A DNA stretch of 64,000 nt from an uncultured delta proteobacterium (GTDB lineage: Bacteria > Desulfobacterota > Syntrophia > Syntrophales > UBA2192), in the NCBI GenBank assembly GCA_963828305.1, contig CAWHEJ010000009.1, forward strand, positions 16,984 through 80,983, given 5' to 3'. Positions within the stretch are counted from its first letter, which is position 1. Each line of letters begins with the position of its first letter. The notes beneath the pieces were generated by a model. It made no database searches. It was not told the origin of the DNA and saw only the letters and a program-made list of their open reading frames with translations. Below, piece after piece: positions 36,493 to 56,758 of the stretch. A program made the translations under genes and the position numbers.

Positions 36493-36760
36493 AGCTTTAG
36501 TCTCAGTTCACGCTGGAGGGGATGCGTCGTCATCGTCGCACCCCACAGCGTGGGCGTCCTATTTCGATCGTAATCATGAACTTCCCGACCTTTATGGAAC
36601 GAGCATGGGCAGGTGTAGTAAATAAAGCTTGTTTTATCCGTGTCTGTAAAGTTGAATAGGAGTTACGATTCATGAACTTTTAGTACCTTCCCTTTTTTAC
36701 CCATAACCGTATTATCCTGCGTATCATTTTTACCGCTGCGGGAAGGAAGAGACATCTGCC

Positions 36761-38473: not shown

Positions 38474-38545
38474 CAATCCCTTGAAACATCCGCAAAAAAG
38501 GCCCCGTTCATCACGAGGCCTTGGGGATGGGTAACAAGTTCATTG

Positions 38546-38643
38546 GGCGGCGGGAGTCGAACCCTACCTATAAAATTCTATCTATTTACAATCATTACTG
38601 CTTTGTTGATGCATCTCCCCCTGGGGACGGCCCGGGGACGGTC
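38546..38643. repeat. att junction: 19-bp tmRNA-3' core plus arm with tandem GGGGACGG sites
   Basis: ggcggcgggagtcgaaccc followed by an arm homologous to 48459-48537. Confidence 0.85.
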
Positions 38644-38816
38644 GACATCTGCTCTACTCAGACACGCACATCAAATGAATCAAAGATCCCGCCTCGACTC
38701 TCGACTCTTTCCTGTAGTCTTGAGGTCTCACTTTTTATCATCAGTGCTACATTTCAAGTTGAGCTTTCCCCATATTGATGGACAGCCATGAAGATTAGTA
38801 AGATGTCACAGGAGGC

Positions 38817-39125
38817 ATGGCTATGGGGAAAGAGGATAAGCATCGTCATTTTACGCGTGAGTTCAAGGTGAATGCGGTCCAACTGGTCACTGAGAAGGGG
38901 ATGCCGGTGGGCAAAGTCGCTCAGGAGCTGGACATCCATCCCAATTTGCTTCATCTGTGGAGAAGGAGGTTGCGGGAAGAGGGAGATAAGGCCTTTGTCG
39001 GCAGGGGCCGAGTCAAGCCGGAGAACGCAGAGGTCAGGCAGCTGCGAAAGGCCTTGAAAAAGATGAAGGAAGAGAGGGACATTTTAAAAAAAGCTTTGGC
39101 CGCATTCTCCAAACAAAGCAGATGA
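38817..39125 (+). CDS. IS3 OrfA
   Basis: FTREFK..AV HTH and ERDILKKA. Confidence 0.92.
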   Translation: MAMGKEDKHRHFTREFKVNAVQLVTEKGMPVGKVAQELDIHPNLLHLWRRRLREEGDKAFVGRGRVKPENAEVRQLRKALKKMKEERDILKKALAAFSKQSR

Positions 39126-39979
39126 AGTATGGGTTTATTGAAGAGCACAGAGAGATGTACAGGATAGGAAGCATGTGTGCAGTACTCAAGACATCCAGAA
39201 GCGGCTATTATGCCTGGCGCAATCGTCAGCCGAGCAGACGACGGATAGACAATCAGGAACTGCTGGGGCATATACGGCAGATCCACACCCGAAGCAGAAA
39301 GCTTTATGGGAGTCCGCGGATCACCGTGGAGCTCAATGAACAGGGGTTCAAATGCGGCAAGAACCGGGTTGCCAGGATCATGAAGGACCACTCCATATGT
39401 GCCGAAGTGAAAAAGAGGAGATTCCGGCGGACTACCGATTCGCGGCATGATTACGCCCTGGCTGCAAACTTGCTGATTGACCAGGGACAGACAGAGGGGG
39501 TATGGGCATCCGATATTACGTTTGTCTCCACTTCGGAGGGGTGGCTCTATGTGGCAGCAGTGATGAATGTGAAAAGCAGAAGGGTCATTGGGCTGTCCAT
39601 GAGTGATACGCTCTCTCAGGAGCTGGCTTCTGCTGCACTCAGAGATGCAGCGGGCAGGCAAAGCCCTCCTGAAGGGTTGATCCACCATTCTGATCGGGGC
39701 CGGCAGTACGCAAGCTATGCCTACCAGGAGCTTCTGAGAGAACACGGCATTACCCCGAGCATGAGCAGAAGTGGCAATTGCTATGATAATGCCTATGTGG
39801 AATCGTTTTGGGGTACGCTCAAGACAGAATTGGTTTATGGTGAGCGGTACCGTTCAAGGCTTGAGGCCAGGCTCAGTATTTTTGAGTACGTGGAAGTGTT
39901 TTATAATCGTCAGCGAAGGCATTCGTCATTAGGGTACAGGAGCCCAGAACAATATGAAAAGCTCCTTCGTGAAACTTAA
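39122..39979 (+). CDS. IS3 OrfB (DDE transposase)
   Basis: YGSPR, WASDIT, HHSDRG.QY, GNCYDNA.VES. Confidence 0.95.
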   Translation: MKYGFIEEHREMYRIGSMCAVLKTSRSGYYAWRNRQPSRRRIDNQELLGHIRQIHTRSRKLYGSPRITVELNEQGFKCGKNRVARIMKDHSICAEVKKRRFRRTTDSRHDYALAANLLIDQGQTEGVWASDITFVSTSEGWLYVAAVMNVKSRRVIGLSMSDTLSQELASAALRDAAGRQSPPEGLIHHSDRGRQYASYAYQELLREHGITPSMSRSGNCYDNAYVESFWGTLKTELVYGERYRSRLEARLSIFEYVEVFYNRQRRHSSLGYRSPEQYEKLLRET

Positions 39980-40037
39980 CCACGTGTCCACTTTATCAGG
40001 GAAAGGTCAAGCAGTAATCCTTGGGAAACGAGCCATC

Positions 40038-40425
40038 ATGCAGATTCTGAAAGCTGGCGTACTCTATTTTGCGCTTGTGTTCGATGCGGGGTTTGCGCTT
40101 GGAACCATTTGTGTCTTGTGGATCGTACCGGAACTCGGCACGAGATTGCCGAGCTGATGGAAGCGCCTTTCATGCTCATCGTAACCATTGCCCCAGCCAA
40201 GTGGGTTGTTCGGCGTCTTGGTGTACCCCCCCCGAAACATGCAGCACACTAGGTATGAGTATTAGCGCGCTCGGTCTTTTACTGACCTAGGAAAGTACGC
40301 TTGTTTTATGACTTCAGGGTTTGACGAAAAGGGAATTCTTTGCGAACCGGGATCCCATGTCGCGAACGATCTACTAAAAATGCTTGGATTGTTTGCCGTC
40401 ATGCCACTTTTCTTTGCGAGGTAGT
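40038..40425 (+). pseudogene. Decayed small membrane-protein gene
   Basis: MQILKAGVLYFALVF.AGF.LGTI... hydrophobic start, continued in other frames with stops; end coordinate approximate. Confidence 0.45.
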
Positions 40426-40647
40426 CAGGGACACATCTTTAGGGAACGCATGAGGCTTACATACTGGAAGTCCGCTGCCAAGGGTCGCAGATAAAATCAG
40501 CATCGTCCGCCCTGATCGGATAAATTAGCCTAAGAGTGATGGTCAGTTACGATCAGATGTGGCCATTTGGTATCCTTGGCTATTGACATCGAATGCCCAC
40601 GGATGGTAAGCATACGCACGAATTAATCCAATGAATCGCGCTCACAC

Positions 40648-40965
40648 ATGAAGATATCATTAACAAGGAATCTCCTATTCATCGCAATCGCCGCATTCTT
40701 TATCAGCTCTCTGGCGATTGCACTCCATCATCACGATGTTCCGCTGCAAGGGCAGACCTGCTCGATCTGCAAGGTGAAGGGTTCAGCCTCGGGCAGTTAT
40801 CATAAAGCGAAAATCAATATTGACCTTGCAATTTCAGTTTGTTCTGCGCTTCTTATTGCCCCCTTTTTCTCGCTTTCGTTGTTGGTTGCAATCCCTCAGG
40901 ATACTCCCCAATCGTCGCCTTGCCTTCTTACGTTTAAGAACAAGGCACCACCCATCCTGTACTAG
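40648..40965 (+). CDS. DUF2946/CruR-like small exported protein (HHHD..CxxC...KAPP)
   Basis: Signal/TM segment, CSIC, terminal NKAPPILY; paralog at 43539. Confidence 0.65.
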   Translation: MKISLTRNLLFIAIAAFFISSLAIALHHHDVPLQGQTCSICKVKGSASGSYHKAKINIDLAISVCSALLIAPFFSLSLLVAIPQDTPQSSPCLLTFKNKAPPILY

Positions 40966-41095
40966 AACCCTATCCGTTGAAAAAGTGCATTTTATTGCAG
41001 GCCGCTGGCGACATGGCTAATGGTCTGAAATCTCAGTGTACTCTAAATCAATTTGTTCTTGATCTGAAAAATACCATTCGTTATGGAGGTAAGTC

Positions 41096-41371
41096 ATGAA
41101 TTGTCCAGTCTGTAATGTATCGTTGGTGATGTCCGAGAGACAGGGTGTCGAAATTGACTATTGCCCGAAGTGCAGAGGCGTTTGGCTCGATAGAGGTGAG
41201 CTCGACAAGATTATCGAACGGTCAACTTCCACAACTGCGCCGGAACAGCGTCCGGCAGTGTCAGCATCCCGGCAGGAAGACCCCTATGATAAGCATCGTG
41301 AGAAAGACCACAAGGATCATGGGAGTTATCATCACAAGAAGAAGGGATTTCTCCAGGATTTGTTCGACTAA
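41096..41371 (+). CDS. zf-TFIIB zinc-ribbon protein with His-rich tail
   Basis: CPVC...IDYCPKCRGVWLDRGEL...LFD. Confidence 0.9.
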   Translation: MNCPVCNVSLVMSERQGVEIDYCPKCRGVWLDRGELDKIIERSTSTTAPEQRPAVSASRQEDPYDKHREKDHKDHGSYHHKKKGFLQDLFD

Positions 41372-41392
41372 CGAGGAGTAAGAAGCAAACGC

Positions 41393-42385
41393 ATGGATGT
41401 GCAAGAACGAAAAACCAGGGTTGCGCTTCTGTCTGTGATTTCCAACACGGCTCTCGTCCTGATGAAGCTCGTTGTGGGCATCATGATCAACTCGGTATCC
41501 GTCATCTCCGAGGCCATTCACTCCGGGATGGATCTGGTGGCGGCGATCATCGCCTGGTTCTCCGTCAGGACATCCAGCAAGCCCGCCGATGACGATCACC
41601 CCTTCGGCCACGGGAAGATCGAAAATGTCTCGGGCACCGTTGAGGCGCTTTTGATCTTTCTCGCCGCTGGGTGGATCATCTATGAAGCCATCAAGAAGTT
41701 TATCTATCCGGAGCCCATCGAGACGGCCTTTTGGGGTGTCGGGGTCATGCTGATCTCGGCCGTCACGAACGTCATCGTTTCCCAAAAGCTGTTCAAAGTG
41801 GGCAGGGAAACAGACTCCGTAGCTCTCCTGGCCGATGCATGGCATTTGAGAACGGATGTCTATACCTCGGTGGGTGTCATGGCGGGGCTCGCGCTGATCT
41901 GGCTCGGGCAATGGATTCTGCCGGGTTATGACCTCAACGGGCTGGACCCGGTCTGCGCCATTGCCGTGGCACTGCTGATCATCAAGGCGGCATATGACCT
42001 GACGGTGCAGTCAGCTCGGGACCTATTGGATGCAAACTTGCCCGAGGAAGAGCAAGCCTGGATTCGGAATCTTCTGGAAACGCAGCGCGGTACCCTTCAC
42101 GGATATCACTATCTCCGTACAAGGAAAGCCGGTCACTTCCGCTTCGTCGAATTCCACGTTCAGGTTGATCGCGAGATGACAGTGGAGGAAGCACATCGTC
42201 TGACTCAGAAGCTGTCGCGGGCCATAAAGGATCACTTGCCACACTCTACGGTGACGATTCATGTCGAGCCCTGTACGGGAGATTGCGTCGACAAATGCCT
42301 GGCCGGGTGTTTGCTCACGGAACCCGAGCGAGTAGAGATTGTCAAAAATTCTGTGAGACCAATTAGATCAACAATACAGCAATGA
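41393..42385 (+). CDS. Cation diffusion facilitator (FieF-like)
   Basis: HSGMD, HPFGHGKIE, HLRTD, EAH, IHVEP, Cys-rich tail. Confidence 0.93.
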   Translation: MDVQERKTRVALLSVISNTALVLMKLVVGIMINSVSVISEAIHSGMDLVAAIIAWFSVRTSSKPADDDHPFGHGKIENVSGTVEALLIFLAAGWIIYEAIKKFIYPEPIETAFWGVGVMLISAVTNVIVSQKLFKVGRETDSVALLADAWHLRTDVYTSVGVMAGLALIWLGQWILPGYDLNGLDPVCAIAVALLIIKAAYDLTVQSARDLLDANLPEEEQAWIRNLLETQRGTLHGYHYLRTRKAGHFRFVEFHVQVDREMTVEEAHRLTQKLSRAIKDHLPHSTVTIHVEPCTGDCVDKCLAGCLLTEPERVEIVKNSVRPIRSTIQQ

Positions 42386-42396
42386 TAGGAGAGGCC

Positions 42397-42798
42397 ATGA
42401 AAAGATGGTTGTTTATCGTACCGATAGTGATGTTCATCCTCTTGGGCTGCGGAGACACTTTCAAGGGGATGGAGTCAGATTTGAAAATCAGTGTCACGGG
42501 AACACCTGGGCTCAAGGTCAGCGGTCATTATGCATTTGTGTCAACCGGGGACGTGCCCAAGCCAATGAATGTGGAAGGCTCCCTACCAGTTGAATACAAA
42601 GGGAAGGGGCTAACGGCGCTCTGTCTATTTAGGAAGACAACGGCTGAAGGCACCTTGAAAGTGGAGATCACCAGGGGCGAAAAGGTAATTGCCTCATCTG
42701 AGACACAGGCGCCCATGGGTTTCGTGTCTCTCACAACACCGCCACCCGAGGCTGAATCCTTCATCGGTCAGATTCTGAGCCGGTTTCTGGGTAAATAG
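42397..42798 (+). CDS. Hypothetical lipoprotein
   Basis: MKRW...LLGC lipobox; start chosen at the second Met. Confidence 0.6.
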   Translation: MKRWLFIVPIVMFILLGCGDTFKGMESDLKISVTGTPGLKVSGHYAFVSTGDVPKPMNVEGSLPVEYKGKGLTALCLFRKTTAEGTLKVEITRGEKVIASSETQAPMGFVSLTTPPPEAESFIGQILSRFLGK

Positions 42799-43009
42799 AT
42801 AGCGGTCTTTCTGTCATCAAGAAATGTATTTTATGCAAAATAATGGTAACTAAGTAGCCCTGATACGAATTGTCTTTTCTTGTTCCATCAAATATACGTG
42901 TGGGTAGTTATCGCAGCTTTCAATTTAAGAATGTCAAACAAGCGTGGATTCTGGATCGGGCATTGCATTTATCACAAAGTTCATGATTGAAAACGATAAG
43001 GGGGTGAAG

Positions 43010-43444
43010 ATGTTTCGCAAAGTCCTATATCCAACTGATTTTTCCGATGTTGCGGGAAAAGCTGTGAGGTATTTGAAACAGCTAAAGGATGCTGGACTGG
43101 AGGAAGTGGTGGTTCTTCATGTGATAGACATACGGCATCTCCATATTCCAGTGATTTATGCTATTAAAGAATTGTCAGCGTTTGAAGAAAGATACACACG
43201 TCAAGCAAAAGAGGGCGCTGACGCAGTGGCTCAAACATTGCAGGAAGTAGGCATCAAAGCGAGAGTCCGGATCGAAAAAGGGATCCCCTTTACAGAGATT
43301 CTTCGGGTAGAAGACGAAGAGGACGTCTCATTAATCATCATTGGATCCCATGGCAAGAGTAATGTTGCAGAAATGCTCCTGGGGTCCGTTTCGGAAAAAG
43401 TGATCCGAAAGGCCAAAAGACCCGTTCTCGTCGTGAAGAGATGA
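43010..43444 (+). CDS. Universal stress protein
   Basis: MFRKVLYPTDFS...GSHG...LLGSVSEKV. Confidence 0.92.
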   Translation: MFRKVLYPTDFSDVAGKAVRYLKQLKDAGLEEVVVLHVIDIRHLHIPVIYAIKELSAFEERYTRQAKEGADAVAQTLQEVGIKARVRIEKGIPFTEILRVEDEEDVSLIIIGSHGKSNVAEMLLGSVSEKVIRKAKRPVLVVKR

Positions 43445-43538
43445 CATCAAGCATCGATTGTGGGTCTGCAAGACAATATGATTTGGTCTGTTTTTCTCGG
43501 TGTGGTATGGGTCCGACCTCGTAAATGAGGATTTGGTT

Positions 43539-43853
43539 GTGTTCAATCGAGCTCGAAAACATGTTCTCTTCTTCTCGGCAGTCGCATTTATAGCAGCGAC
43601 CATAACACTCGCATATCATCTCAACGATTCCCCCTTCAAATATTCAACGTGTTCCATCTGCAAAATCAAGAATTCCTTTTCAGCATCGGTCAAAACAAAA
43701 ACAGACAAATTCGACGTTGCCATTCACAACAGTCCCCTTAAGATCGCATCGAATCTTACTATCAGTGTTCCGCCTCTCCATGAGAAGACAATAATACATA
43801 TCAATTGCACATCTCATCCACTCTCGAACAAAGCTCCCCCACTATATTCCTAA
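43539..43853 (+). CDS. DUF2946/CruR-like small exported protein (CxxC...KAPP), paralog 2
   Basis: GTG start after GAGG; TM segment, CSIC, terminal NKAPPLYS. Confidence 0.6.
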   Translation: MFNRARKHVLFFSAVAFIAATITLAYHLNDSPFKYSTCSICKIKNSFSASVKTKTDKFDVAIHNSPLKIASNLTISVPPLHEKTIIHINCTSHPLSNKAPPLYS

Positions 43854-43957
43854 GAAGTCCCTAAGAATCATCATTTTTTGAGCATAGTTGCTTTCATGCG
43901 AGTATTGGCCGTAACGCCTGACCGCCAAACACACCCTTACCTACGGGAGGAAATACA

Positions 43958-44227
43958 ATGAATTGCCCTACATGCCGCGATACGATACTGGTTATGGCCG
44001 AAAGACAGGGAATAGAAATCGACTATTGTCCGAAATGCAGAGGCGTCTGGCTGGATAAGGGAAAGCTCGACAGGATCATAGAGCGATCAGCACCGGAACG
44101 CCAGACGACCCCGGCACCGACTCGGGAGGTATACCCCGAGAAACACCATGACAGGCATTACGACGAACACAACCGCCATGTCGACAATCACCACAAAAAG
44201 AAAAGTATCTTTGATTTGTTCGATTAG
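43958..44227 (+). CDS. zf-TFIIB zinc-ribbon protein, paralog 2
   Basis: CPTC...IDYCPKCRGVWLD...His-rich...LFD. Confidence 0.9.
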   Translation: MNCPTCRDTILVMAERQGIEIDYCPKCRGVWLDKGKLDRIIERSAPERQTTPAPTREVYPEKHHDRHYDEHNRHVDNHHKKKSIFDLFD

Positions 44228-44300
44228 AGGAGTCCTCAAACATTTGAAATCACATAAGTACATCGCAACAGAGCGTTCAAACCACGGGGAGAGACCGAAC

Positions 44301-44603
44301 ATGATTGATGATGTCTACAAGGCTTATAAGTCCGAGCGATATCATGACGGCTACCATAGCAAAAGTCACAAACATCACAATATCCTGCTCTATATTGCAG
44401 CACGGTTATTTCGCAGCAAAGCCCTGATTGCCGCTGCCGTCCTGATATTTCTAACCCTCGGCGCGATCGGAATATGGCTGTTAGTCACGTTACTGCCTTT
44501 CGTAGGGCAGTTACTGTCCATTCTGGAAAAGCAGGGAATAAAGGGCATCCTGGATGCAATAGCCCCGTTCCTCAAGACATTATGGGAAGGTTCGGGGAAA
44601 TGA
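44301..44603 (+). CDS. Small membrane protein with His-rich N-terminus
   Basis: GGGGAG RBS; YHSKSHKHH then a hydrophobic helix. Confidence 0.6.
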   Translation: MIDDVYKAYKSERYHDGYHSKSHKHHNILLYIAARLFRSKALIAAAVLIFLTLGAIGIWLLVTLLPFVGQLLSILEKQGIKGILDAIAPFLKTLWEGSGK

Positions 44604-44678
44604 TGGGATAAACAATACCATCTGGACCGCGATTATAGGTCAGTCACTTGCACAGACTGCCGCGAAAGGATATGAGTC

Positions 44679-44981
44679 ATGCACGATCTTCGCATAGTTA
44701 ATAATTCAGTCCCGCATACTGCGTCTGCGGGGAAATCCCAGGGAGAAGCAAAAAGCAGCGACAAAACATTCGGTTCCATTCTTGTAGACAATTTGAAGGA
44801 GGTCCACAAACTCCAAACCGGTGCAGACAAGGCTATCGCCAACGTCATGCTAAACAATACTGGAAGCATTCACGAAGCCATGATCGCAATGGAAAAAGCC
44901 GGAATCGCGTTTCAGGCCACGATAACCATTCGAAATAAGATGCTGGAAGCATATCAGGAAGTGATGAAGATGCAGGTCTAG
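44679..44981 (+). CDS. fliE: Flagellar hook-basal body protein FliE (orphan)
   Basis: IHEAMIAMEKA...IRNKMLEAYQEVMKMQV. Confidence 0.9.
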   Translation: MHDLRIVNNSVPHTASAGKSQGEAKSSDKTFGSILVDNLKEVHKLQTGADKAIANVMLNNTGSIHEAMIAMEKAGIAFQATITIRNKMLEAYQEVMKMQV

Positions 44982-45155
44982 CGCTATGTCGTTCTGCATC
45001 AGGGTTATGCAGGGGAGACCAGAAGATACGGGAATCACTACTATTATCCTTCGTCTTCTGCGCAAAATTGAAAATTACGCTGAAATAGAAACGCATGTAT
45101 ATCAAAAGTAACATTTGACATTTAATGCACCGGGACTGAGATAGCCGTCAACTTT

Positions 45156-45503
45156 ATGGCCTCGAAGATTGTCGTCTCTAACCAGGACCGCTATGACGAA
45201 TACGTGGTGCTTATCGATGGCACGGAAAAGGCGGGCGTGTTCCCCTTGACCTCGGTCACAGTGGAAGTCCCGCCCGGATCGTATGTTCTGTCGTTCCGGA
45301 GCAAGGCGGAAGCAGAGCTTCCAGTCACATGCAAGTCGATCCGTGTCACACTGAAGGACATCTCAACACTGTCCCTTTACGTCAAGAGACGGAATCTTTC
45401 GATCGGAATCTATGATGAACAGCAATGCCAGTTGAACGCCAGGTATGGTTTCCTCTGCGGGCGGGTAGCGGAAGGTGTTCATATCGAGAACCCGATTGAG
45501 TAA
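45156..45503 (+). CDS. Hypothetical beta-rich protein
   Basis: Open frame with a PEGA-like V.PG.Y segment. Confidence 0.55.
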   Translation: MASKIVVSNQDRYDEYVVLIDGTEKAGVFPLTSVTVEVPPGSYVLSFRSKAEAELPVTCKSIRVTLKDISTLSLYVKRRNLSIGIYDEQQCQLNARYGFLCGRVAEGVHIENPIE

Positions 45504-46179
45504 CCTGCGCGACCCGGCCTGGACGGAACCGTATCATAACCCTCAGCTTCTCCGTGAGCGGCTCCTGTAACGACTCATGAGCCGACGGTCTGTTTTCGTA
45601 TTCTTATGGTCAAGAGGAAGTGCTCAAGGCTCTGGGCCATACGTACCTTGTCGTCTTCCCGGCACTGGCCACAGCATTCAGAATTGTTGTCAGTTCCTAC
45701 GCCTATCGTGGATTATCAAGTAGGGGATGCCGAGATCATCAGGCATTTTAGCCTTCCTTCTTTTCATTGTGATTGCTCATTCGCACGTGTAAGGAACTCC
45801 TGCATTCACTAATTGATTTATTTTGAATAGGTGAATAGCAATTGGAAATACTACAAGTGTGGGTGAGGTTTATTTAACCTTCTATTTCCCGTTTATCTTT
45901 CAAGAATGCATATAAGACGGGGGACACTCTACACCCGTCTTATGCATTCAATAAATATGAATTCCAACAAAACGTTGAAACGGCAATCGTGTCTACCACT
46001 CCTTGTGTATTTCAGATGGAGAAGACTGATGGGCATCCTGAATATTGAAACAACATCACAGTGTTGTTATCTATTTTTACCTTTTCATCTTTCTTCGAAT
46101 AAGTTAATCTCCCATCGAATTTCCACACGAATTATTGTCATAGTGTTTCTCCGGCACAACCAGACCGAAAAGGGTAGCG

Positions 46180-47007
46180 ATGACCATCAATAACCGACAC
46201 CGTCTTCTGCTGCGAGTTAGCGCAATCGTTGTTGTGATCGTAAGCGCGAAACTCCTCGTTCATTTCCTCGGGTGGGAGATTATCTCCATCAACCCGCTGT
46301 TTTCGGGGATTGTGGCTGCAAACGTCTTCCTGATGGGGTTTCTTCTGAGCGGTGTCCTGTCGGATTTCAAGGAAAGTGAACGTCTTCCGGGCGAGTTGAG
46401 CGCATGCCTGGAGAATCTGGCGCAGGAAGTGTCCGGTATCAGAATCGCAAAACCTGAAGCCAAAGTAGGTCCCTGCCTGATTCTTCTATCGCAATTGAGT
46501 CAGGACATTCTGACTTGGTTCTATAAGAAACACCACTCGGCAGGGCTGCTCGGTCACGTGAATGGTCTAACCCCTCAGTTCGCAGCGATGGAACAATGGA
46601 CTCAAGCGACCCTGGTGGCTCGATTGAAGCAGGAACAGGGTAATCTCCGGCGCACCCTTGTACGCATTCGCACGATTCGAGAAACTTCCTTTGTTCCCTC
46701 GGGTTATATACTCGCCGATCTCGTCACGATTCTTCTTTGCGTAGGTCTCATATTGGCAAAGATCGAACCCTTTTACGAGTCGTTGTTCTTCGTAACGGTT
46801 ATCTCGTATCTGATGATTTTCCTCCTCATGCTAATCCGGGATCTTGACAATCCGTTCGGTTACTATGACCGCTATTCCGGCGAAGACGTATCCCTCAAGC
46901 CGCTAGTGGAGACAGTCGGTCGGCTCGCGCAGCTCGCTAGCGTCGAAACCGATGCACCCGTGGACACTGCTAAACAGAGCGATCCACAGAATGGCCATTT
47001 GCGATAG
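46180..47007 (+). CDS. Bestrophin-like (DUF4239-type) membrane protein
   Basis: Four TM segments; DFKESE and DLDNPF. Confidence 0.7.
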   Translation: MTINNRHRLLLRVSAIVVVIVSAKLLVHFLGWEIISINPLFSGIVAANVFLMGFLLSGVLSDFKESERLPGELSACLENLAQEVSGIRIAKPEAKVGPCLILLSQLSQDILTWFYKKHHSAGLLGHVNGLTPQFAAMEQWTQATLVARLKQEQGNLRRTLVRIRTIRETSFVPSGYILADLVTILLCVGLILAKIEPFYESLFFVTVISYLMIFLLMLIRDLDNPFGYYDRYSGEDVSLKPLVETVGRLAQLASVETDAPVDTAKQSDPQNGHLR

Positions 47008-47179
47008 GATAGAACTCGACGAACCGGAAACTTTAAAAAATGAGTGAGCCGGACAACGCATTTCAACCGACAATCTCCACTTCCGATAGTGCTTTTTCAC
47101 CTTGAAGACTAGATGAACGTTTCAACAGTATGCCAAAGTTGTCACATCCGATTTTGATTTAAAGGCATAGGGGGTACTG

Positions 47180-48187: not shown

Positions 48188-48342
48188 ACAGATCAACCGG
48201 CAATCAGGCGGCAATAGGTCGACCGGCTTGCAGGTGACGAGGGGCATAGCGCCTTGGCAGAGAGGTGCTCATACTATCTATCCGTAATCCTCAATTGTGA
48301 CAGCTACCCCCAAGTGAAAGCGTTATTTTCAACAGAAATAAT

Positions 48343-48537
48343 AAACCCCTCTTCCGAGGGGTCTGGGGACGGCCGAAATACTGGCTTTCAACATTGGCAA
48401 AATTGTAAGTATATGATATAATTAAATATTTTTGGTGGAGGCGGCGGGAGTCGAACCCTACCTGTAAAATCCTATCCATATACAATCATTACATATTTGA
48501 CGATGTATCTCCCCTTGGGGACGGTCCGGGGACGGTC
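48343..48537. repeat. Complete attP-like junction between tandem elements (arm + 26-bp core + arm)
   Basis: 48343-48458 nearly identical to 55926-56042; 48440-48537 similar to 38546-38643; core tggtggaggcggcgggagtcgaaccc at 48433-48458. Confidence 0.9.
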
Positions 48538-49169
48538 GTCTTTCTAACAAAATACTGACAATCACTATCCGTGCTCAGAACAGAATTTAGGAACTGTCTG
48601 CGCTATCGACTCCTTCCTGCTTAAAATTAGACTCTGGTAAAAGATAGAAGATTACATTCGTTAATCGCCAGACATGAATGAGGCAGAGACAATCGATGCT
48701 GCCTCACCTGCTTCCGGCAAAGAACTCATCATAAACAGCATGAATTTGACAAGCGGCAGCGTTGCTTATATCAAGATCAGCTGCCATACGATGCAGCCTT
48801 GCTGCCATAAACCTACTTCCAACATCTCCTGATTCCTCCAAATCCGGCAATTCCAAAGTCAAAAAGCAGTAAGATCATGGGTTCCATTACCTGGACTATG
48901 CCTGCGGCATGAATCACCGTGTGATGTATTTGCATGCAATAAGCCGACTCAACAACTCCCCTATCCGATGAACCAAATTCTTATAGGAATCTCAGGATAA
49001 ACGAACAACGAAATCTGCTATGGCCGGATGTGCCGACTCCAAATAAGAAAGTACAATTCCTAAGAACATTTTGGCACCATATCGTACAGGTAGGAGTTCG
49101 TCATTTGTATGACTTGTGAAGTATAGGTATCTATACGGATAAAGAAGAAGAGAACTGGAGAGAAGCGAG

Positions 49170-49826
49170 ATGTCTACCATACGGGTTTTGCTTGCCGATG
49201 ACCAAAAGATCATCCGGGACGGACTCAAGACATTAATCGAAAAAGAGGCCGGCATGGAGGTGATCGCCGAGGCGGAAAACGGCCGCGAGACAGTCCGGCT
49301 AGCCCATGAACTTCGTCCCAACGTAGTCATCATAGACGTGACCATGCCGGACATGAACGGGATTGACGCAACCCGGATGATCATGGAAGAAACCCCAGGG
49401 GTCCGGGTCATCGCCCTTTCCATGCACTCCGACCAGAGTTACGTCCTGGGTATGCTCGAGGCAGGGGCGTCTGGCTACCTCCTCAAGGCTTGCGCCTTCG
49501 AGGAATTGGCCACAGCCATCCGAAATGTGGCGGAGGGAAACATGTACCTCAGCCCGAGGATCGCCGAGGTGGTGGTCAAGGGGTATCTCGGCAAGGGGCC
49601 CGGAACCTTCCAAGCATTGGGATGCGCACTCACACCCCGCGAGCGTGAGATCATCCAGCTTCTGGCCGAGGGGATGGCAACCAAGGAGATTGCCGTTCAC
49701 CTCAAGATAGCCATAAAAACCGTCGAGACACACCGTCGAAACACAATGGTGAAGCTTAACATGCGAGGCATTGCCGAGTTGACGAAATATGCCGTCCGGG
49801 AGGGATTGGTGAGCATCGAGGGGTAG
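49170..49826 (+). CDS. NarL/LuxR-family response regulator
   Basis: Receiver domain plus LTPRE.EI...KTVETHR HTH. Confidence 0.95.
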   Translation: MSTIRVLLADDQKIIRDGLKTLIEKEAGMEVIAEAENGRETVRLAHELRPNVVIIDVTMPDMNGIDATRMIMEETPGVRVIALSMHSDQSYVLGMLEAGASGYLLKACAFEELATAIRNVAEGNMYLSPRIAEVVVKGYLGKGPGTFQALGCALTPREREIIQLLAEGMATKEIAVHLKIAIKTVETHRRNTMVKLNMRGIAELTKYAVREGLVSIEG

Positions 49827-49902
49827 TAGGGAGGCTCACGACGCACGAAGCCGGTTAATGTCCTCTTCTCCTACATTTCTATTTGAATGAGGAAAGGGAA
49901 GG

Positions 49903-50511
49903 ATGAAGGCTATGAATAAGAAAGTCATAATATTCATGCTCATTTGGCTTTTCATCGTGGGTTCAGTTTATGCCCAGTTGCCAATTCCGCCTCCGGTTGT
50001 CAAACCATTTGCGGACAGCCGAGATTGGATGCTAGTCGAAACTGTTGAATATTCTATTGGGAATTCGGGCGTCACGATTATCGTCCCGAAGGGCTTTGTC
50101 ACGGATTTCGCTAGTATTCCGCAACCTCTGTGGTCGTTTGGTTTGTCACCATATGGCCGCTTCAGCAAAGCAGCAATTGTTCATGATTATCTCTACTGGA
50201 AACAAGACTGTACACGTGAGCAGGCCGACAACCTGTTGCTTATCGCCATGAAGGAGAGCGGTGTAAGCAGGTCACAACAAAGTGAAATCTATGTCGGCGT
50301 TCGCGCCGGCGGCGAGACCGCATGGGAGTCAAACAGAAAAGATCGTGCTGCAGGACTTATCAAGATTATTCCAGATGATCGTCTGAATTTCCCTTATGAA
50401 ATCAATTGGCGTGATTATAGAAAACAATTGTTCGATCTTGGTGTGAAAGAACCTCAGTCGACTGAACCGTCGGCATATTGTTCTTTCGGTAACTCGACAG
50501 ATGTACCGTAA
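49903..50511 (+). CDS. DUF1353-family exported protein
   Basis: Signal peptide; VPKGFVTDFASIP, AAIVHDYLY, VRAGG. Confidence 0.85.
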   Translation: MKAMNKKVIIFMLIWLFIVGSVYAQLPIPPPVVKPFADSRDWMLVETVEYSIGNSGVTIIVPKGFVTDFASIPQPLWSFGLSPYGRFSKAAIVHDYLYWKQDCTREQADNLLLIAMKESGVSRSQQSEIYVGVRAGGETAWESNRKDRAAGLIKIIPDDRLNFPYEINWRDYRKQLFDLGVKEPQSTEPSAYCSFGNSTDVP

Positions 50512-50802
50512 TCAAAGGCATGGATGATAGCCCGTACTCCCCTGAACTCGCTTACTCTGCCTGTTGACTTCCTTCCGCTCTAAGGCCCCCGCACTCGTTC
50601 ACTCATCCATTTACTGAGGATGAAATCATATTTTTCGAATGCACAATTGCGCATCTCCCCGATAGAATTAAGCGTCTTAATATTTAAGATTAATTACGGT
50701 TGCAATCGTTGCATACTGAATAGAGTAGTATTGGCACAGAACACAAGCACTGTTCGTTTGCTGACAACAGGCGGCGTTACAGACGAAATAGGAGGTGACA
50801 AT

Positions 50803-51126
50803 ATGCCTGAAAAAGCAGCCCCCCCCAAATGGGGTCCCATCTTCGATCCTGCTCCCTGGCCAGGTGGCAACTGGCCGCCGATCTGGCAGAACCCGCACTG
50901 GCCGCCCGTGGTGGACCCGATTCCATGGCCATGGAAACGTGTACCTTTCCCCCACGGAGACCCGATCCCCTTCCCTGACAAGTTCTGGGATAAGGTGCGG
51001 ATTGAGGACCTGATTGCTTTGCGGCTGGCAAACCTGGAGGCCCAGCACGAGGTATTCAGGGCGCAACTCGAAGCCGAAAAAACCCTTCTCGAAAAACAAA
51101 GACAGATTCTTTCCAGGTACAAGTAA
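50803..51126 (+). CDS. Pro/Trp-rich repeat protein (107 aa), candidate radical-SAM substrate/precursor
   Basis: GGAGGT RBS at 50791; three PxxDPxP[WF]P motifs and a C-terminal helical segment. Confidence 0.8.
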   Translation: MPEKAAPPKWGPIFDPAPWPGGNWPPIWQNPHWPPVVDPIPWPWKRVPFPHGDPIPFPDKFWDKVRIEDLIALRLANLEAQHEVFRAQLEAEKTLLEKQRQILSRYK

Positions 51127-51221
51127 ATGTAGTCCGTGCATATCCTCTTGCACAAAAGCACACTTTGCCGCCTGTTGTCCCAACTTTTTTACTTGTCCAA
51201 AGTCCCCCGTGGAGGTACGTC

Positions 51222-52814
51222 ATGTCCGCACGCAATGTGGCTTTCGTGGCCTATCAAGATCAGCCAAACCTCGGTATTGGTTACCTCGCGAGTGTCCTCG
51301 TCAATGATGGTTTCCAAGTGGAGGTACTCGATTACCGGAAAGGTTTCGAGTCCATCCTGGAGCGCATCCGGGAGCTTGACCCGCTTTTCATCGGGCTCTC
51401 CGTCATCTTCCAGCACTATACACCGGACTTTGCCAATCTGGTGGCCTACCTGCGCGACAACGGAATTAAGCACCCCATCTGCGCCGGGGGACATTACCCA
51501 AGCCTAGAAAATAAAGCCTGTCTCAAGGAGATGCCCGGACTGGACTTCATCGTCCGCTTCGAGGGCGAGCAGACCCTGCTCGAGGTAGCCCGACAATTGC
51601 GCAACGGACGGAATTGGCGCAGCGTCCACGGCATTGCATACCTGAATGATGAGGCCGTTGTTGACATGCCGTTGCGGCCCTTGACACCGGATCTGGACAG
51701 CCTTCCGTTTCCGAAGCGCTGGAATTTCGACTTGCACTGCCTGGGAATCCGCGCCACAAGCATCCTGGCCAGCCGTGGGTGCCCCCGCAATTGCTCGTTT
51801 TGCAGCATCCGGATGTTTTACTCGATCCCGCCGGGCCCCGTGCGTCGATCGCGAACCCCGGAGAACGTGATCGAAGAGATGCGGCAGCTCTACCGGGATC
51901 AGGGTGTTCGCATCTTTCTCTTCCAGGACGATGATTTCTCCCTGATGAGCAAGCGTGATCGCGACTGGACGTGGCACTTTCTCGACTGTCTGAACCAGTC
52001 TGAAATGAAGGGGGCCATTTCGTGGAAAATCAGTTGTCGCTCCGACGAGGTCGAACCGAAAATATTCGCCGCTATGCGCGACGCGGGACTGATGTTTACC
52101 TATCTGGGAATTGAATCGGGCCACGAGGCAGGCCTGCGCGTCCTCAATAAGCATCTCACCGTGGCACAGAACGTACAGGCCGTTAAGACTCTAAAAAGCT
52201 TGGGGATTAGCTTTGATTTCGGGTTCATGCTGTTCGATCCGTCCAGCACCATCGATCGGGTATTGAAGAACATTCATTTCGTAAAACGGATTTGCGGCGA
52301 CGGCAGTGCGCCGGTGTCCTTCGCAAAAACCCTGCCCTACGCGGGAACGGACCTTGAACGTCAGATGAGCAAGGCGGGCCGACTTCGTGGCGATGTCGCC
52401 ACTCCTGATTACAGCTTCTTGGACCACCAAACCGAAGAGTGGTTCGGCTATCTTTGCGAGGTCTTCTACCCGTGGGTCTATGGCGGCCAGTCGCTTCAGG
52501 CCCAGCTCAGATGGGCTGCCTTCGAATTGGATGTGCTTGACCGGTTCTATAACAAAGCACCTGGCCTGGAAGAGCACAGAAAGAGGGTCCGCTTTCTCAC
52601 CCACTGGTACAATGAAATCTACTGCAGGATTGTCGAGGATTCCTCCGGGTATTTCCGCACGCCGCACGCTGAAAACTCCCATGCCCTGGCAGCTATTCGT
52701 TCAGCCTCAGAGCAACAGCGGAACTGGATTGAAGACCAGCTCGCTCTGCAACGCCGGGAGTTCTTCACCTCCGCCGAATTTCCTCTGGAACTTGTACTGG
52801 GCAACGTCGCGTAA
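51222..52814 (+). CDS. Cobalamin-binding radical SAM enzyme (class B methyltransferase-like)
   Basis: GGAGGT RBS; N-terminal B12 domain (LGIGYLASVL, GGHYPS, FEGE); SRGCPRNCSFC; DDDF; GIESG. Confidence 0.92.
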   Translation: MSARNVAFVAYQDQPNLGIGYLASVLVNDGFQVEVLDYRKGFESILERIRELDPLFIGLSVIFQHYTPDFANLVAYLRDNGIKHPICAGGHYPSLENKACLKEMPGLDFIVRFEGEQTLLEVARQLRNGRNWRSVHGIAYLNDEAVVDMPLRPLTPDLDSLPFPKRWNFDLHCLGIRATSILASRGCPRNCSFCSIRMFYSIPPGPVRRSRTPENVIEEMRQLYRDQGVRIFLFQDDDFSLMSKRDRDWTWHFLDCLNQSEMKGAISWKISCRSDEVEPKIFAAMRDAGLMFTYLGIESGHEAGLRVLNKHLTVAQNVQAVKTLKSLGISFDFGFMLFDPSSTIDRVLKNIHFVKRICGDGSAPVSFAKTLPYAGTDLERQMSKAGRLRGDVATPDYSFLDHQTEEWFGYLCEVFYPWVYGGQSLQAQLRWAAFELDVLDRFYNKAPGLEEHRKRVRFLTHWYNEIYCRIVEDSSGYFRTPHAENSHALAAIRSASEQQRNWIEDQLALQRREFFTSAEFPLELVLGNVA

Positions 52815-52989
52815 TTTTTATCTTGAAGGGCTGCGACGCAGAAGAATTGTTCAATATCATTCGCAGAACTACTGTCTTCCAAAAGACGTAACCGGTTGCT
52901 GTATCTACCGCTCCATTTCAATCGCAAATCTTCAGTACATGCTGGAATACAATGCCTGAGAAGTAGGTGAAATGAGTTTCCTCACAAAG

Positions 52990-53030
52990 AATCACCTCAT
53001 CCGGCATTCAGGGTACCGGATGAGGTGATT
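52990..53030. terminator. 15-bp inverted repeat downstream of the radical SAM gene
   Basis: AATCACCTCATCCGG...CCGGATGAGGTGATT. Confidence 0.65.
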
Positions 53031-53080
53031 ATGGGGAAAGAGGAGGGGGTATCTCTGCTCGAGCCCTGAAATTTACAGGC

Positions 53081-53275
53081 TCACGCAATTCTTTTAGGTG
53101 GCGGTTCCTCGAAGTACCGCCTGACTGATGCCATGATCGAAAGCTCCAAGTCTCCCATTTTCCCTCTGTCGTCCCTGAAATAGCGCTGCATGGTATCTAC
53201 AATGCTTGATTCCATGCTCGACCGTTTATATGTATCGCTCTCCGTTGTTTTACCGGGCGTCAGCATCTCTTTCAT
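53081..53275 (-). CDS. Small hypothetical protein (64 aa)
   Basis: AGAGGT RBS; C-terminus RYFEEPPPK also occurs as a DNA relic at ~35854. Confidence 0.5.
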   Translation of the reverse strand: MKEMLTPGKTTESDTYKRSSMESSIVDTMQRYFRDDRGKMGDLELSIMASVRRYFEEPPPKRIA

Positions 53276-53649
53276 ATGCTTACCTCTACTGGATTCGTTT
53301 TGAAGAGATTGAGCACGTTCGTTCTTAGTGTTTGCTTCCTGAAGTTGCTTGACGATGAGCGGTCATCATGATCGCTTCTTTGTACCTAATATCCTGCTGA
53401 TCGGCATGAAGGGTTTCATTTGCGTATTCCGCGGACGATCCAGAATATAGCGCCGATAATGATGACAACAAACAGAATGTAAAGTAGTAAATCCACGGAT
53501 GGCTCCTTATCGAATCGTATTGATGAAGTTTCGATATCGAACCCTGAGGACATCGAGTGCATGGTCATTGTCGGGGAGTTCAAACAACACACTGAAACCC
53601 GCACGAAGCGCTCGCACTTCACTGGCCAGAAACTTTCCGCGAAGGCATC

Positions 53650-54245
53650 TCGGTCGATCCCGATGATTTGCGGCCCCGGGGTTCCCGCTCGCCGCAGTTG
53701 CACCTCAAGGTACTGCTTCTCCAGCGCCTTGATCGTCTTCCAGTCCAGATGGGTCTCCCGGGCCACATCCCGGATTGTCGAAACACGGCACCGTCGTCCC
53801 ACCCAGAAGGAAAAGCGCTTCGTGTAGAACGGGTTGTCGGCCAGCCACTTCAGGCTCTCCTGCTTCACTTTCCCGCAACTCCGGCAAAATACGCGTCGGA
53901 TCTCCACATCCAGCCAGACGCGACGGTCGCCGCAGGAAAGATCCCGAACCCGACGCACCTTGCGGTCGTAAAACGTCCGGCATGTCTGTCCGCAGGCCCC
54001 GCAAATCGTTTTTTTCCCCGGCGGCGCAGCTTGATGACCAGGGCCTTCGGATCACCGAAGATCCCCGATACCCCGGGCTCCGGTGTAAACTCCGGAAACC
54101 GATACGCGTCCCACAATCGTTTCGTTTTTCGCATCTGGAGTTCATATCATATTTTGTCGGCGTCAAAAAGAGTGCAGACCCTTGCAGGTCAAGATTTTGC
54201 AGCTTAAAAACCCGTTAGTTTACCCACTCGATTGGGAGAAGATCC
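53650..54245 (-). mobile_element. Truncated ISL3-family element
   Basis: End GGATCTTCTCCC; short ORF ending at an A7 slippery run (54009-54015), then zinc finger/RRVRDL..., TKRF, and IGID where it breaks off. Confidence 0.85.
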
Positions 54246-54777
54246 CTATTTTTTAAAACATGATTTGCAAGCCTTCTGCAATCGGGCCCAGGATGAATGA
54301 CATGATCCAAATGCCTTAACGCGGTTTCATAAAAAGGATGAGAAATGAGCGAGCACCCGAACAGGAACACGATTTTCTTTACGCTGAAACCGGCTGCTCA
54401 GTTTCGCCTCGATTACATCGTCTGGGCCCTCAGGATGCGCAATGGATAAAAAAGATAACATCCTGATTTTATGGAACAATCATTTACGTGTTGCCAATAT
54501 CCGTTTTTTCGTTTCCATGCCTTGATCCCCTCGTAAAACCTCCTCTGCATTACCGATTGAAAGTCTGAGGCGCTGCACCAAGGAAGGCCGTTCAGACGGC
54601 AGAAACGGCTTCAGCAGCTTGAAGATTACGGATAGTAAGGTGGTTATTTTGAGGTCTACAAAAGGGCTCTTCAGGTGGCGTCGGGAGGGCTCATTTGGAT
54701 CAGCTCTGCGTATAGCTTGAAGTTGTTGAAATCGGATTTCGGCTGATTGTGTATATTGCAATCGATAATCGTTAGAA

Positions 54778-54815
54778 CGTAAGAAGGCAGAGCCAATCGA
54801 CTCTGCCTTCTTACG
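54778..54815. terminator. 15-bp inverted repeat
   Basis: CGTAAGAAGGCAGAG...CTCTGCCTTCTTACG downstream of the receiver gene. Confidence 0.65.
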
Positions 54816-54841
54816 CTCATCGTCACGAATGGGCCTGCCTA

Positions 54842-55246
54842 TTACCTTTTTACTGCTAAGGGCTTCCTTGAGCGTGCTACCCTGTGGATGGTTTTTGACA
54901 TTTCTTCGAAATTATCACCCTTCACAATGTATCCCAGTGCACCGGCACGCATCATTTCCGCATAGAAGATGGTATCGGAATATACGGAAAGAGCCAGAAT
55001 CTTCATCCCGGGCCTATTGGCAACAATCCGTCGCGTTGCTTCGATTCCGTCCATGACTGGCATCTTGATGTCCATGATGATGACATCGGGTTGAAGGTCA
55101 TCGGCTAATGTGATCGCTCTCTGACCGTTTTCCGCCTCACCGACCACCTCCATGTCGGCCTCACGGTTGATCAGCATCTTGAGCCCGTCGCGGCACAACT
55201 CGTGATCGTCAACAATCAGGATGCTTGTCTTCGCAATATCTCCCAT
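54842..55246 (-). CDS. NarL-type receiver domain without HTH
   Basis: ILIVDDH, MDIKMP, GALGYIVK; ends after the receiver. Confidence 0.88.
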   Translation of the reverse strand: MGDIAKTSILIVDDHELCRDGLKMLINREADMEVVGEAENGQRAITLADDLQPDVIIMDIKMPVMDGIEATRRIVANRPGMKILALSVYSDTIFYAEMMRAGALGYIVKGDNFEEMSKTIHRVARSRKPLAVKR

Positions 55247-55492
55247 GATTAATTATCAAATGCCAGACAAGAATACTATGTAGTCAATACCTTAGGTTTC
55301 TAATGATTTGGAGTATCTGGATTCCGACCCCCGCCGTCTATTTTGTCTGCTCAATAATCAACAGATGTTCCAGCATTCCGTCACATTTTGCCAGATTTAG
55401 CTTGACTTGCATCCCCCTGATAGTATTGAGTTGTGCAAATTTATCAGGCAATCATCAGTTATTCGGCACCATCGACTGGTAAGGGGGCTTAT

Positions 55493-55792
55493 ATGTCAAG
55501 GGAAGTCGATATAAAGCTTGATATGATAAGGGTTTATTTCAAACATCGCATTGCCGATTGTTCATCCGAAGACTCTTATGATGATAAACTGGGATTGCAT
55601 ATTTTCCAGCTCCACTGCAAAGGAGATCCCACCAGCGTTCACGTATCGCGTGAGTTCATCGATGCGCATTCACCAGCCGAAATTCTCACGACTCTTATGC
55701 GGCTCCAACCGGAGAATTATATCCGAGGGATAAATACAGGCCACATCAAAATTACAATTGATGGCGTTAAGGTGGAGTCAAATAAGATTTAG
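55493..55792 (+). CDS. Hypothetical protein
   Basis: AAGGGGG RBS, open frame of 99 aa. Confidence 0.55.
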   Translation: MSREVDIKLDMIRVYFKHRIADCSSEDSYDDKLGLHIFQLHCKGDPTSVHVSREFIDAHSPAEILTTLMRLQPENYIRGINTGHIKITIDGVKVESNKI

Positions 55793-55917
55793 CCCCTCTG
55801 CACTTCTGAACTTGTAGTAATTAGTTTCTACCTGCATTTCATCCGGAAATCTTCAACATACTCGTCTTACTGACTCGTGTACTCGGAGGTGTAAGCGTTT
55901 TTCTCTGGATTCACTTG

Positions 55918-55946
55918 AAAAAAGAAAACCCCTCTTCCGAGGGGTC
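55918..55946 (-). terminator. Rho-independent terminator downstream of tmRNA, within the element arm
   Basis: Minus strand ACCCCTC-GGAA-GAGGGGT followed by a T-rich tract; hairpin copy at 48345-48362. Confidence 0.7.
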
Positions 55947-56016
55947 TGGGGACGGCCGTAAATACTGGCTTTCAAAATTGGCAAAACTGTAAGTACATGA
56001 TATAATTAAACATTTT

Positions 56017-56373
56017 TGGTGGAGGCGGCGGGAGTCGAACCCGCGTCCGGAAACCTTCAGCTGCAGCTTCTACACGCTTAGTCCCCGATTTAAGGTTCGC
56101 CTCGGAGGCCTCCCGGGGACGGGATCCCTCGTCGGCTATCCTGTGTTTGGTTTCGCCTCACCCGCCACAGGAGATCAGGGTCGGCTATCCTGGCTGATTT
56201 TACGCCCTGTTCGAGCCGTCAGGAAAACCCGGCAGGACGAGGCTACTTAAGCAGCCTGTGCGTAAACGTAGTCGTTGGCGTTTACAGTTTTTCTACCTGT
56301 TTAAGGAGCCCGGTAGAAACCTCCGCGTGCGACTGTCAGCATCAATTATCCCCGTCGAAACCGTGGCGCCCCC
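56017..56373 (-). ncRNA. ssrA: tmRNA; encoded tag ANDYVYAQAA* (56247-56279)
   Basis: 5' GGGGGCGCCACGGTTTCGACGGGG; 3' GGGTTCGACTCCCGCCGCCTCCACCA; tag frame present; smpB nearby. Confidence 0.96.
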
Positions 56374-56406
56374 ACTTGTACATCGGCAAGGAACAATTTC
56401 AGCTTT

Positions 56407-56435
56407 AATCTAGCTTGCCTGCAGCGGGAAGTCAA
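56407..56435 (-). promoter_or_regulatory. Sigma-70 promoter of ssrA
   Basis: TTGACT-N17-TAGATT. Confidence 0.7.
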
Positions 56436-56448
56436 GCAGGGATACAGG

Positions 56449-56757: not shown

Positions 56758-56758
56758 G

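Follow-up and report, generated by a model that had tools for sequence, protein, structure and literature searches.

How do islands that carry no integrase gene come to be stacked at one chromosomal site? The question is raised by a stretch of 64,000 nucleotides (the window) from an uncultured delta proteobacterium of the order Syntrophales (GenBank assembly GCA_963828305.1, contig CAWHEJ010000009.1, positions 16,984 to 80,983), in which genomic islands lie in tandem at the 3' end of the transfer-messenger RNA (tmRNA) gene ssrA. The source assembly, designated G000, is metagenome-assembled (3.1 Mb, 38 contigs, 87% complete), and the window belongs to its contig C9. Integration at the tmRNA 3' end with duplication of that end, the stacking of islands and the absence of an integrase from the array are established, as are the reuse of one set of arms around many cargoes and the occurrence of the same cassette with different neighbours. 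Islands 1 and 2 of the window belong to a family of integrase-less elements in one Syntrophales genus. What we infer concerns the identity of the integrase, the roles of the motifs and present-day mobility: the islands are probably cassettes mobilizable in cis or in trans, resembling cis-mobilizable elements (CIMEs), that rely on an integrase for which this assembly has no gene.

Core repeats at the tmRNA gene

The tmRNA gene, the copies of its 3' end (the core) and the islands between them were located as follows.

56017-56373, minus strand: tmRNA gene (ssrA), intact, tag ANDYVYAQAA (ARAGORN; Rfam RF00023, 177.6 bits)
56017-56042: core copy 1, the last 26 nt of the tmRNA
48459-55833: island 1 with its right arm (armR)
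48433-48458: core copy 2, an exact copy of the tmRNA 3' 26-mer at the centre of the attP-like middle junction
38565-48274: island 2 with its armR
38546-38564: core copy 3, 19 bp of the tmRNA 3' end
35686-38495: island 3, low in G+C
35661-35685: core copy 4, the displaced native tmRNA 3' end in decayed form, continuing directly into the syntenic native flank

An initial annotation, made from the sequence alone, had described the recurrence of the tmRNA 3' 26-mer at 48433-48458 and of 19 bp of it at 38546-38564, and a repeat search bore this out. Both pairs of arms were also found where they had been placed. The first family of direct repeats (48376-48458 and 55960-56042, 95% identity) comprises the 26-mer and ~57 nt to its left, the second (48336-48378 and 55919-55961, 91%) the next 43 nt, and the third (38546-38644 and 48440-48538, 88%) the 19-bp core and 80 nt of the right arm. 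No direct repeat of at least 18 nt was detected beyond these families between 36000 and 58000; the cargoes of islands 1 and 2 are therefore unrelated at the DNA level, as had been proposed for these cargoes of 7.6 and 9.9 kb. The junction sequence occurred in only three places in the whole G000 assembly. G+C content was 0.45-0.56 across 35-56 kb compared with 0.59-0.65 in the flanks. The core is identical to the 3' end of the target and contains the T-stem inverted repeat around a 7-nt loop, the loop being the likely overlap. Core copy 3 was 5 bp shorter than the corresponding copy in the congener G009. The array had been drawn from 38546 to 56042. The repeats over this interval were confirmed, but its left limit was not, as the decayed fourth copy at 35661-35685 bounds a third island.

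Structure of the arms

Each arm measures ~0.2 kb. Conserved blocks lay within ~185 nt to the left and ~200 nt to the right of the core in the window, and in relatives they extended up to ~215 nt (left) and ~245 nt (right). The arm matches reported initially were thus correct, but the arm length of ~80-90 bp was an underestimate. The left arms (armL) and right arms contain the following features.

55834-56016: armL of island 1, the tmRNA-proximal island
55834-55857: outer block of armL, island 1
55888-55899: GGTGTAAGCGTT block of armL, island 1
55928-55945, minus strand: terminator hairpin of armL, island 1
55948-55955: GGGGACGG of armL, island 1
55978-56006, plus strand: sigma-70-like promoter TTGGCA-17-TATAAT of armL, island 1
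55990-56002, minus strand: site of armL, island 1, resembling that of integration host factor (IHF)
48275-48432: armL of island 2
48314-48324: GTGAAAGCGTT block of armL, island 2
48343-48364, minus strand: terminator hairpin of armL, island 2
48365-48372: GGGGACGG of armL, island 2
48394-48422, plus strand: sigma-70-like promoter of armL, island 2
48406-48418: IHF-like site of armL, island 2
48459 to ~48660: armR of island 1 (tandem GGGGACGG at 48517 and 48528; outer block, 48647-48658)
38565 to ~38785: armR of island 2, with tandem GGGGACGG at 38623 and 38634

The motif positions agreed with the arrangement of GGGGACGG proposed initially, a single copy on one side of the core and a tandem pair on the other. 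In both armR a pair of copies with a period of 11 bp began at a distance of 58 nt from the core, and each armL carried one copy (48365, 55948). Six of the eight GGGGACGG matches in the window fell into arms, while the total of eight is within chance (shuffle mean 4.2, with at least eight matches in 8 of 100 shuffles). The armL site, which lies outside the pattern used for retrieval of related loci, was kept in 11 of 14 distinct armL sequences.

From the outside inwards, armL is composed of a CATTTCA...AAATCTTCAA block, the GTGAAAGCGTT block, the terminator, GGGGACGG and an AT-rich segment of 60 nt adjoining the core. The GTGAAAGCGTT block, which marks the outer boundary of armL, kept its position across 14 junctions whose cargoes differ. 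The tmRNA terminator noted initially corresponds to the hairpins at 48343-48364 and 55928-55945; on the minus strand, the armL terminator would serve the regenerated tmRNA. In armR, the tandem pair is accompanied by further blocks, and an outer GAAGATTNCAAT-like block was found with at most two mismatches in 8 of 16 sequences, compared with 110 of 3200 shuffles. No conserved RNA fold was detected in armR, the consensus fold of 15 armR sequences giving 7 pairs and no compensatory changes.

The motif in the AT-rich segment of armL, which we take to be IHF-like, was scored against the IHF consensus. With at most one mismatch it was present in 15 of 17 island-type armL, at offsets of 6-21 nt, and in 401 of 8400 shuffles. 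Its conservation, which upholds the initial reading, includes integrase-bearing tmRNA islands, namely those of the genomes G013 and G039. The native flank of the congener G010, where the site is empty, also has a perfect match to the consensus. On the plus strand, the same segment reads as a strong, near-consensus sigma-70-type promoter, TTGGCA-17-TATAAT with a TG extension (11 of 12 positions). A promoter-like sequence with at least 9 of 12 positions occurred at this place in 8 of 14 armL, and the match was 12 of 12 in the metagenomic locus L046. The promoter faces across the core, and the tmRNA-proximal copy would read antisense into ssrA. Promoter and IHF-like motif overlap, and the segment may function as either.

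A short armL allele, in which 68 nt comprising GGGGACGG, the IHF-like site and the promoter are missing, was observed in L036 (5760-5800 and 7790-7830), in G009, L051 and L061, and in one contig of the public run X4. In this public contig, the allele appears as position 48362 joined to 48431.

Reuse of the arms around other cargoes

The initial annotation had proposed searching relatives for the same arms with other cargo, and this search was carried out. Among 61 genomes of the order, the tmRNA core alone was common to most, and the arms matched in two congeners, G009 and G011. In G011 the whole junction was present at 94% identity, with a transporter of the major facilitator superfamily and two CoA-transferases as left cargo in place of the CorA of the window. 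The middle junction, initially described as effectively an intact attP, is a complete attP-like module of arm, core and arm. G009 showed the same architecture beside its tmRNA gene, with a cassette of 2 kb containing a single DUF1254/DUF1214 gene and a cassette of 20.7 kb encoding a P-type ATPase, oxidoreductases and a phosphoenolpyruvate-utilizing enzyme.

Further loci were retrieved with an exact pattern composed of the core, 50-66 nt and the tandem motif. In all species genomes the pattern was found in G009 and G011 only, apart from two apparently chance matches. In metagenome contigs it occurred in 19 stretches, 18 of which had a tmRNA-type context. The core-plus-armR pattern gave no match in viral contigs, where the tandem motif alone was present in two unrelated contigs of high G+C. 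One viral contig of high G+C, L069, contains an iteron-like run of GGGGACGG-type words with an 11-bp period (~4600-4760, reverse strand), which is probably unrelated to the cassettes.

With hidden Markov models (HMMs) of the arms, 26 armR-bearing junctions were identified in 23 sequences. The 47 cargo-edge segments adjoining these junctions fell into 32 clusters. The cassettes ranged from 2 to 21 kb and were mostly multi-gene, one being single-gene. The distal cassette of G009 recurred in L061 (93.6%) and L051 (94.2%), with a different tmRNA-proximal cassette in each of the three. Four types of armL (long, short and two others) were paired with different types of armR. Inside one metagenomic cassette, a transposase of the IS110 family (DEDD) was noted (L058:2847-4046, minus strand).

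The empty site and island 3

The empty site, another item proposed for checking, is present in the congener G010, where a 3-kb locus contains the uninterrupted tmRNA site. This locus aligned with the window on the left at 34171-35677 (88.4%) and on the right at 56016-57536 (92.3%), and with the flanks of G009 at 92.6% and 95.4%. The left alignment runs into the decayed core copy at 35661-35685, so the displaced native fragment in fact lies here, and the interval 35686-38495 constitutes a third island. Island 3 and its tmRNA-proximal end contain the following features.

35842-36492: 216-aa open reading frame (ORF)
36761-38473: pyridoxal phosphate-dependent decarboxylase
38496-38545: end of island 3 towards the tmRNA, a copy, 79% identical, of the flank that natively lies downstream of the tmRNA (terminator hairpin and GGGGATGGGTAAC...CATTG)

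The arm HMM search detected no GGGGACGG-type armR in island 3. The decarboxylase gene alone was found at other chromosomal loci in G007 (94%) and G009 (88%), which gives three contexts for one gene; the locus of the G007 type holds other DNA in G000. Because the gene occurs at other chromosomal loci and the GGGGACGG-type arm is lacking, island 3 looks like captured chromosomal DNA outside the cassette family.

Search for a recombinase

The six-frame search of G000 with PF00589 (tyrosine recombinases) gave 18 matches, none of them on C9. In G009 three matches were obtained, none on the contig with the array. PF00239 (serine recombinases) had no match in G000, G009 or G011. A tblastn search with the tmRNA- or tRNA-adjacent integrases of four relatives gave no match, either on C9 or in the cassette loci. 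An HMM built by us from 12 tyrosine recombinases matched 10 of 10 control loci, fragments included; applied to the window and the cassette loci (23 sequences, 219,530 bases), it gave a best E value of 0.031 and was negative for the window. The initial statement that no recombinase ORF is visible therefore stood for tyrosine and serine recombinases, but not for insertion-sequence transposases, as an IS3-family transposase and an ISL3 fragment are present.

The best match of this HMM was a C-terminal integrase remnant of ~90 aa with an in-frame stop, ~3 kb from a junction (L053:3296-3568, minus strand). It adjoins a truncated membrane-protein ORF and was the only integrase trace in 219.5 kb. The check for integrase remnants that had been suggested initially was thus negative for the window and C9 and yielded one pseudogene in L053. 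Three ORFs of 384-429 aa without a Pfam match, two of them ~0.25-0.6 kb from a junction, were inspected; two look secreted, and none of the three had integrase motifs. The Pfam scan of 62 cassette ORFs covers the 25 commonest of 100 families, so a single recombinase could escape it.

Contigs C21, C33 and C34 of G000 carry multi-copy sets of adjacent tyrosine recombinase genes of ~400, 298 and 301 aa, which resemble recombinase-in-trio (RIT) elements. As a helper for the cassettes the RIT-type trios were rejected, since they are absent from G009.

Integrase-bearing islands at the same site

In four relatives (G039, G048, G034 and G045), the tmRNA end is adjoined by an integrase gene reading towards it, and in G039 and G048 this integrase carries the arm DNA-binding domain PF12167. 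G045 contains a complete autonomous tmRNA island of 5.5 kb with the repeat TGACA[AG]T. On the plus strand of the 9.3-kb locus, six of the seven copies lay in the two arms and the seventh in the flank, ~40 nt outside the distal core. Two copies are located in armL beside an IHF-like motif, 11 bp apart and 37-48 nt from the core, and four in armR at 55-110 nt from the core. The cassettes of the window follow the plan of this island with a different word, and GGGGACGG is for this reason read as the arm-type site.

In the congener G013, genes for a 383-aa integrase and a 93-aa helix-turn-helix protein (Xis-like) abut the tmRNA 3' end. The arm has a GTAAGT...TGA.AT motif in common with the cassettes and contains GGACCCC twice, 11 bp apart. 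At E ≤ 1e-30, this integrase family was present in 5 of 22 genomes (G013, G016, G017, G020 and G009, where it lies at tRNA-Leu) and was found in neither G000 nor G011. The lack of a cognate integrase in the lineage had been named initially as a ground for abandoning mobilization in trans. The outcome was divided: a tyrosine integrase at the same site exists in G013, but a cognate one was not found in G000, G009 or G011.

Proposed mechanism and alternative explanations

The three islands probably entered the ssrA 3' end through site-specific recombination of the kind performed by tyrosine integrases. The T-loop part of the shared 26-mer is the probable place of crossover, because the leftmost core copies decay only on the acceptor side and the T-stem provides an inverted repeat. 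On integration, armL would give the regenerated tmRNA a terminator; it also carries one GGGGACGG and an IHF-like site, and armR carries two GGGGACGG one helical turn apart. The GGGGACGG copies are putative arm-type sites for the N-terminal domain of an integrase encoded outside these elements, and IHF may bend the arm DNA. Having no integrase of their own, the elements would need either an enzyme from elsewhere acting in trans or a functional element beside them acting in cis, the latter corresponding to the accretion route of CIMEs. The absence of an integrase, the shared arms and the many cargoes support in part the initial proposal of non-autonomous cassettes mobilized in trans, but neither a helper nor circles were observed. 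In public runs the share of words was at most 0.21; the contigs of runs X1-X4 aligned to 37500-57000 were short pieces from relatives, and none of them joined the two sides of an island. A single 6.1-kb skip in a public contig (48672 to 54784) was discounted, with a side of 28 nt and 7 foreign letters. The proposed analogy with integrons held only in part, and defining features are lacking: no integrase lies beside the site, there are no attC-type hairpins and the cassettes are multi-gene units of 2-21 kb.

Several results weigh against this mechanism. A cognate integrase was not found in G000 (87% complete), G009 (90%) or G011 (88%), and these three genomes share no accessory integrase apart from Xer-like genes. 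The GGACCCC repeat of G013 differs from GGGGACGG, and the G013 integrase is therefore a lead to the family and not the helper. No circle or excision joint was seen. The short-armL junctions of G009, L051 and L061 may be recombination-dead, and one junction (L043, ~7600) has mutated sites. Finally, only loci with the core and the tandem armR sites could match the retrieval pattern, which makes the conservation of these sites partly circular.

The strongest alternative is that integrase-bearing islands integrated serially, lost their integrases and are now fixed, the similarity of the arms reflecting common descent only. The integrase pseudogene kept in one cassette, the decayed junctions and leftmost core copies, the short armL alleles without the presumed sites and the lack of both a helper in three genomes and an excision joint all agree with such fossils. 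However, the GTGAAAGCGTT boundary of armL is identical in 14 junctions with different cargo, which independent deletions would not produce, and a single-gene cassette still has full arms. In addition, the type of armL does not go with a particular type of armR, and closely related genomes carry different proximal cassettes. Fixed remnants are accordingly a serious candidate, but one that we hold to be rather unlikely.

Homologous recombination would need no dedicated recombinase if the junction modules of ~0.4-0.5 kb and the tmRNA gene acted as portable homology for the DNA of relatives. The junctions are 75-95% identical over hundreds of bases, the similarity of G009 to L061 and L051 stops 100-190 nt inside armR and not precisely at the core, and island 3, which terminates in sequence copied from the native flank, contains a gene that congeners have at other chromosomal loci. 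This explanation accounts neither for the attP-like layout of sites shared with an autonomous island nor for the exact duplication of the tmRNA end at each junction, and it is considered improbable as the main route.

An exchange by the host enzymes XerC/XerD or another non-element enzyme, as for integrative mobile elements exploiting Xer (IMEX elements) or pdif modules, is very improbable. A Xer-like pair is the only kind of recombinase common to G000, G009 and G011, but the site used comprises the T-loop and acceptor end of the tmRNA, flanked by long arms, and is unlike a dif-like site of 28 bp. A fuzzy search of G000 with a dif-like consensus gave nothing usable.

An artefact of assembly, raised in the initial annotation, or of binning as the cause of the repeated junction would fit a source assembled from a metagenome in 38 contigs, but is barely credible, as the same architecture occurs in diverged copies in two other assemblies (G011 with the same junction) and at 18 loci on independent metagenome contigs, and the arm copies within the window differ by 5-12%.

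Dependence on an integrase encoded elsewhere thus remains our preferred explanation. The junction module of ~0.4-0.5 kb combines the tmRNA terminator, the IHF-like site, the GGGGACGG sites and, in many copies, an outward-facing consensus promoter. A more far-reaching proposal, which we put forward tentatively and regard as doubtful, is a genus-wide pool of integrase-less cassettes with this standard attP-type module. The cassettes might be swapped at the ssrA end by a tyrosine integrase encoded in an unbinned element or in other cells, with new ones turning over mainly at the tmRNA-proximal position. Functionally, such a pool would correspond to an integron assembled from att sites of the lambda type.

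Comparison with known systems

The general phenomenon is in print for Dehalococcoides. McMurdie et al. (2011; PMC3146451) describe tandem islands downstream of ssrA that are bounded by tmRNA 3'-end repeats. These islands insert in the T-loop region, and the sequence surrounding their repeats is conserved. Sixteen of these islands have a module with a large serine recombinase (DsiB), and 15 without an integration module were proposed to be cis-mobilizable. The islands of the window resemble them as integrase-less tandem ssrA islands bounded by tmRNA-end repeats, and differ in that PF00239 had no match in three genomes, the arm layout is of the tyrosine type and the phylum is another. No intact integrase was present in any cassette examined here, and the arms are long and standardized.

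CIMEs and their site-specific accretion (Pavlovic 2004 and Bellanger 2011, cited in PMC5704250) are presented there as decay products of an integrative conjugative or mobilizable element next to a functional relative. They share with the present islands the combination of attL and attR, the lack of integration and transfer genes and the tandem position at the 3' end of a target gene. In contrast, there is no functional relative in the array described here, and one arm set surrounds at least 20 unrelated cargoes across species.

With Islander-type tRNA and tmRNA islands (PMC4383910), exemplified by G045 and G013, the window islands have in common the duplicated 3' end of the target, the restored gene, an IHF-like site and putative arm-type repeats. 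The islands of G045 and G013 encode an integrase beside the tmRNA end, whereas those of the window do not. Like integron cassettes, the islands are integrase-less units with unrelated cargo at one chromosomal site and mostly co-oriented genes (79 of 108). Unlike integrons, the system has no integrase or attI-Pc platform, its modules are attP-like and ~0.4-0.5 kb long rather than attC hairpins, and window-type cassettes are multi-gene and have their own regulators.

The array stands closer to the tandem array of cis-mobilizable elements, as proposed for the integrase-less ssrA islands of Dehalococcoides (PMC3146451), than to integrons. It is a new family of a known kind of element, tandem integrase-less ssrA islands having already been published there. 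The main gain is therefore a second, mechanistically different example with tyrosine-type arms. Literature searches found no description of this cassette family, and a comparative paper on Smithellaceae from 2026 does not mention tmRNA, ssrA or integrase.

If the cassettes are still exchanged, syntrophic anaerobes would trade sensory, transport and radical-SAM gene sets without the cost of an integrase for each element. The standardized arms could serve as an HMM or PCR probe for the accessory gene pool of the genus in metagenomes, and the arm set would define the DNA sites of the predicted integrase.

Cargo and flanking genes

According to Pfam, island 1 encodes a LuxR-type response regulator, a DUF1353 protein, a B12-binding radical SAM enzyme and a single-domain response regulator. 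Island 2 encodes a cation diffusion facilitator (CDF) efflux protein, Usp, two zinc-ribbon proteins, FliE and a split CorA. Pfam scans of the larger ORFs of both islands detected no relaxase or type IV secretion genes. Individual features of the cargo are as follows.

53416-53958, minus strand: ISL3 transposase fragment, island 1
38817-39979: transposase of an IS3-family insertion sequence, island 2 (orfA 38817-39125, orfB 39122-39979)
47180-48187: CorA, island 2, in two consecutive ORFs of 118 and 215 aa (profile positions 3-86 and 106-292)
41096-41371 and 43958-44227: paralogous zinc-ribbon (PF13453) proteins, island 2
44679-44981: lone FliE, island 2

The CorA gene of island 2 is probably broken. 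The array is flanked by genes for AtuA, SmpB, a PP-loop ATPase and enolase on one side and for an NMT1-like protein and an AAA ATPase on the other, and no integrase adjoins it in these flanks. Of the 108 non-redundant cassette ORFs of at least 110 aa, 79 are oriented from armR towards armL and converge with ssrA; restricted to G000 and G009, the figure was 30 of 35.

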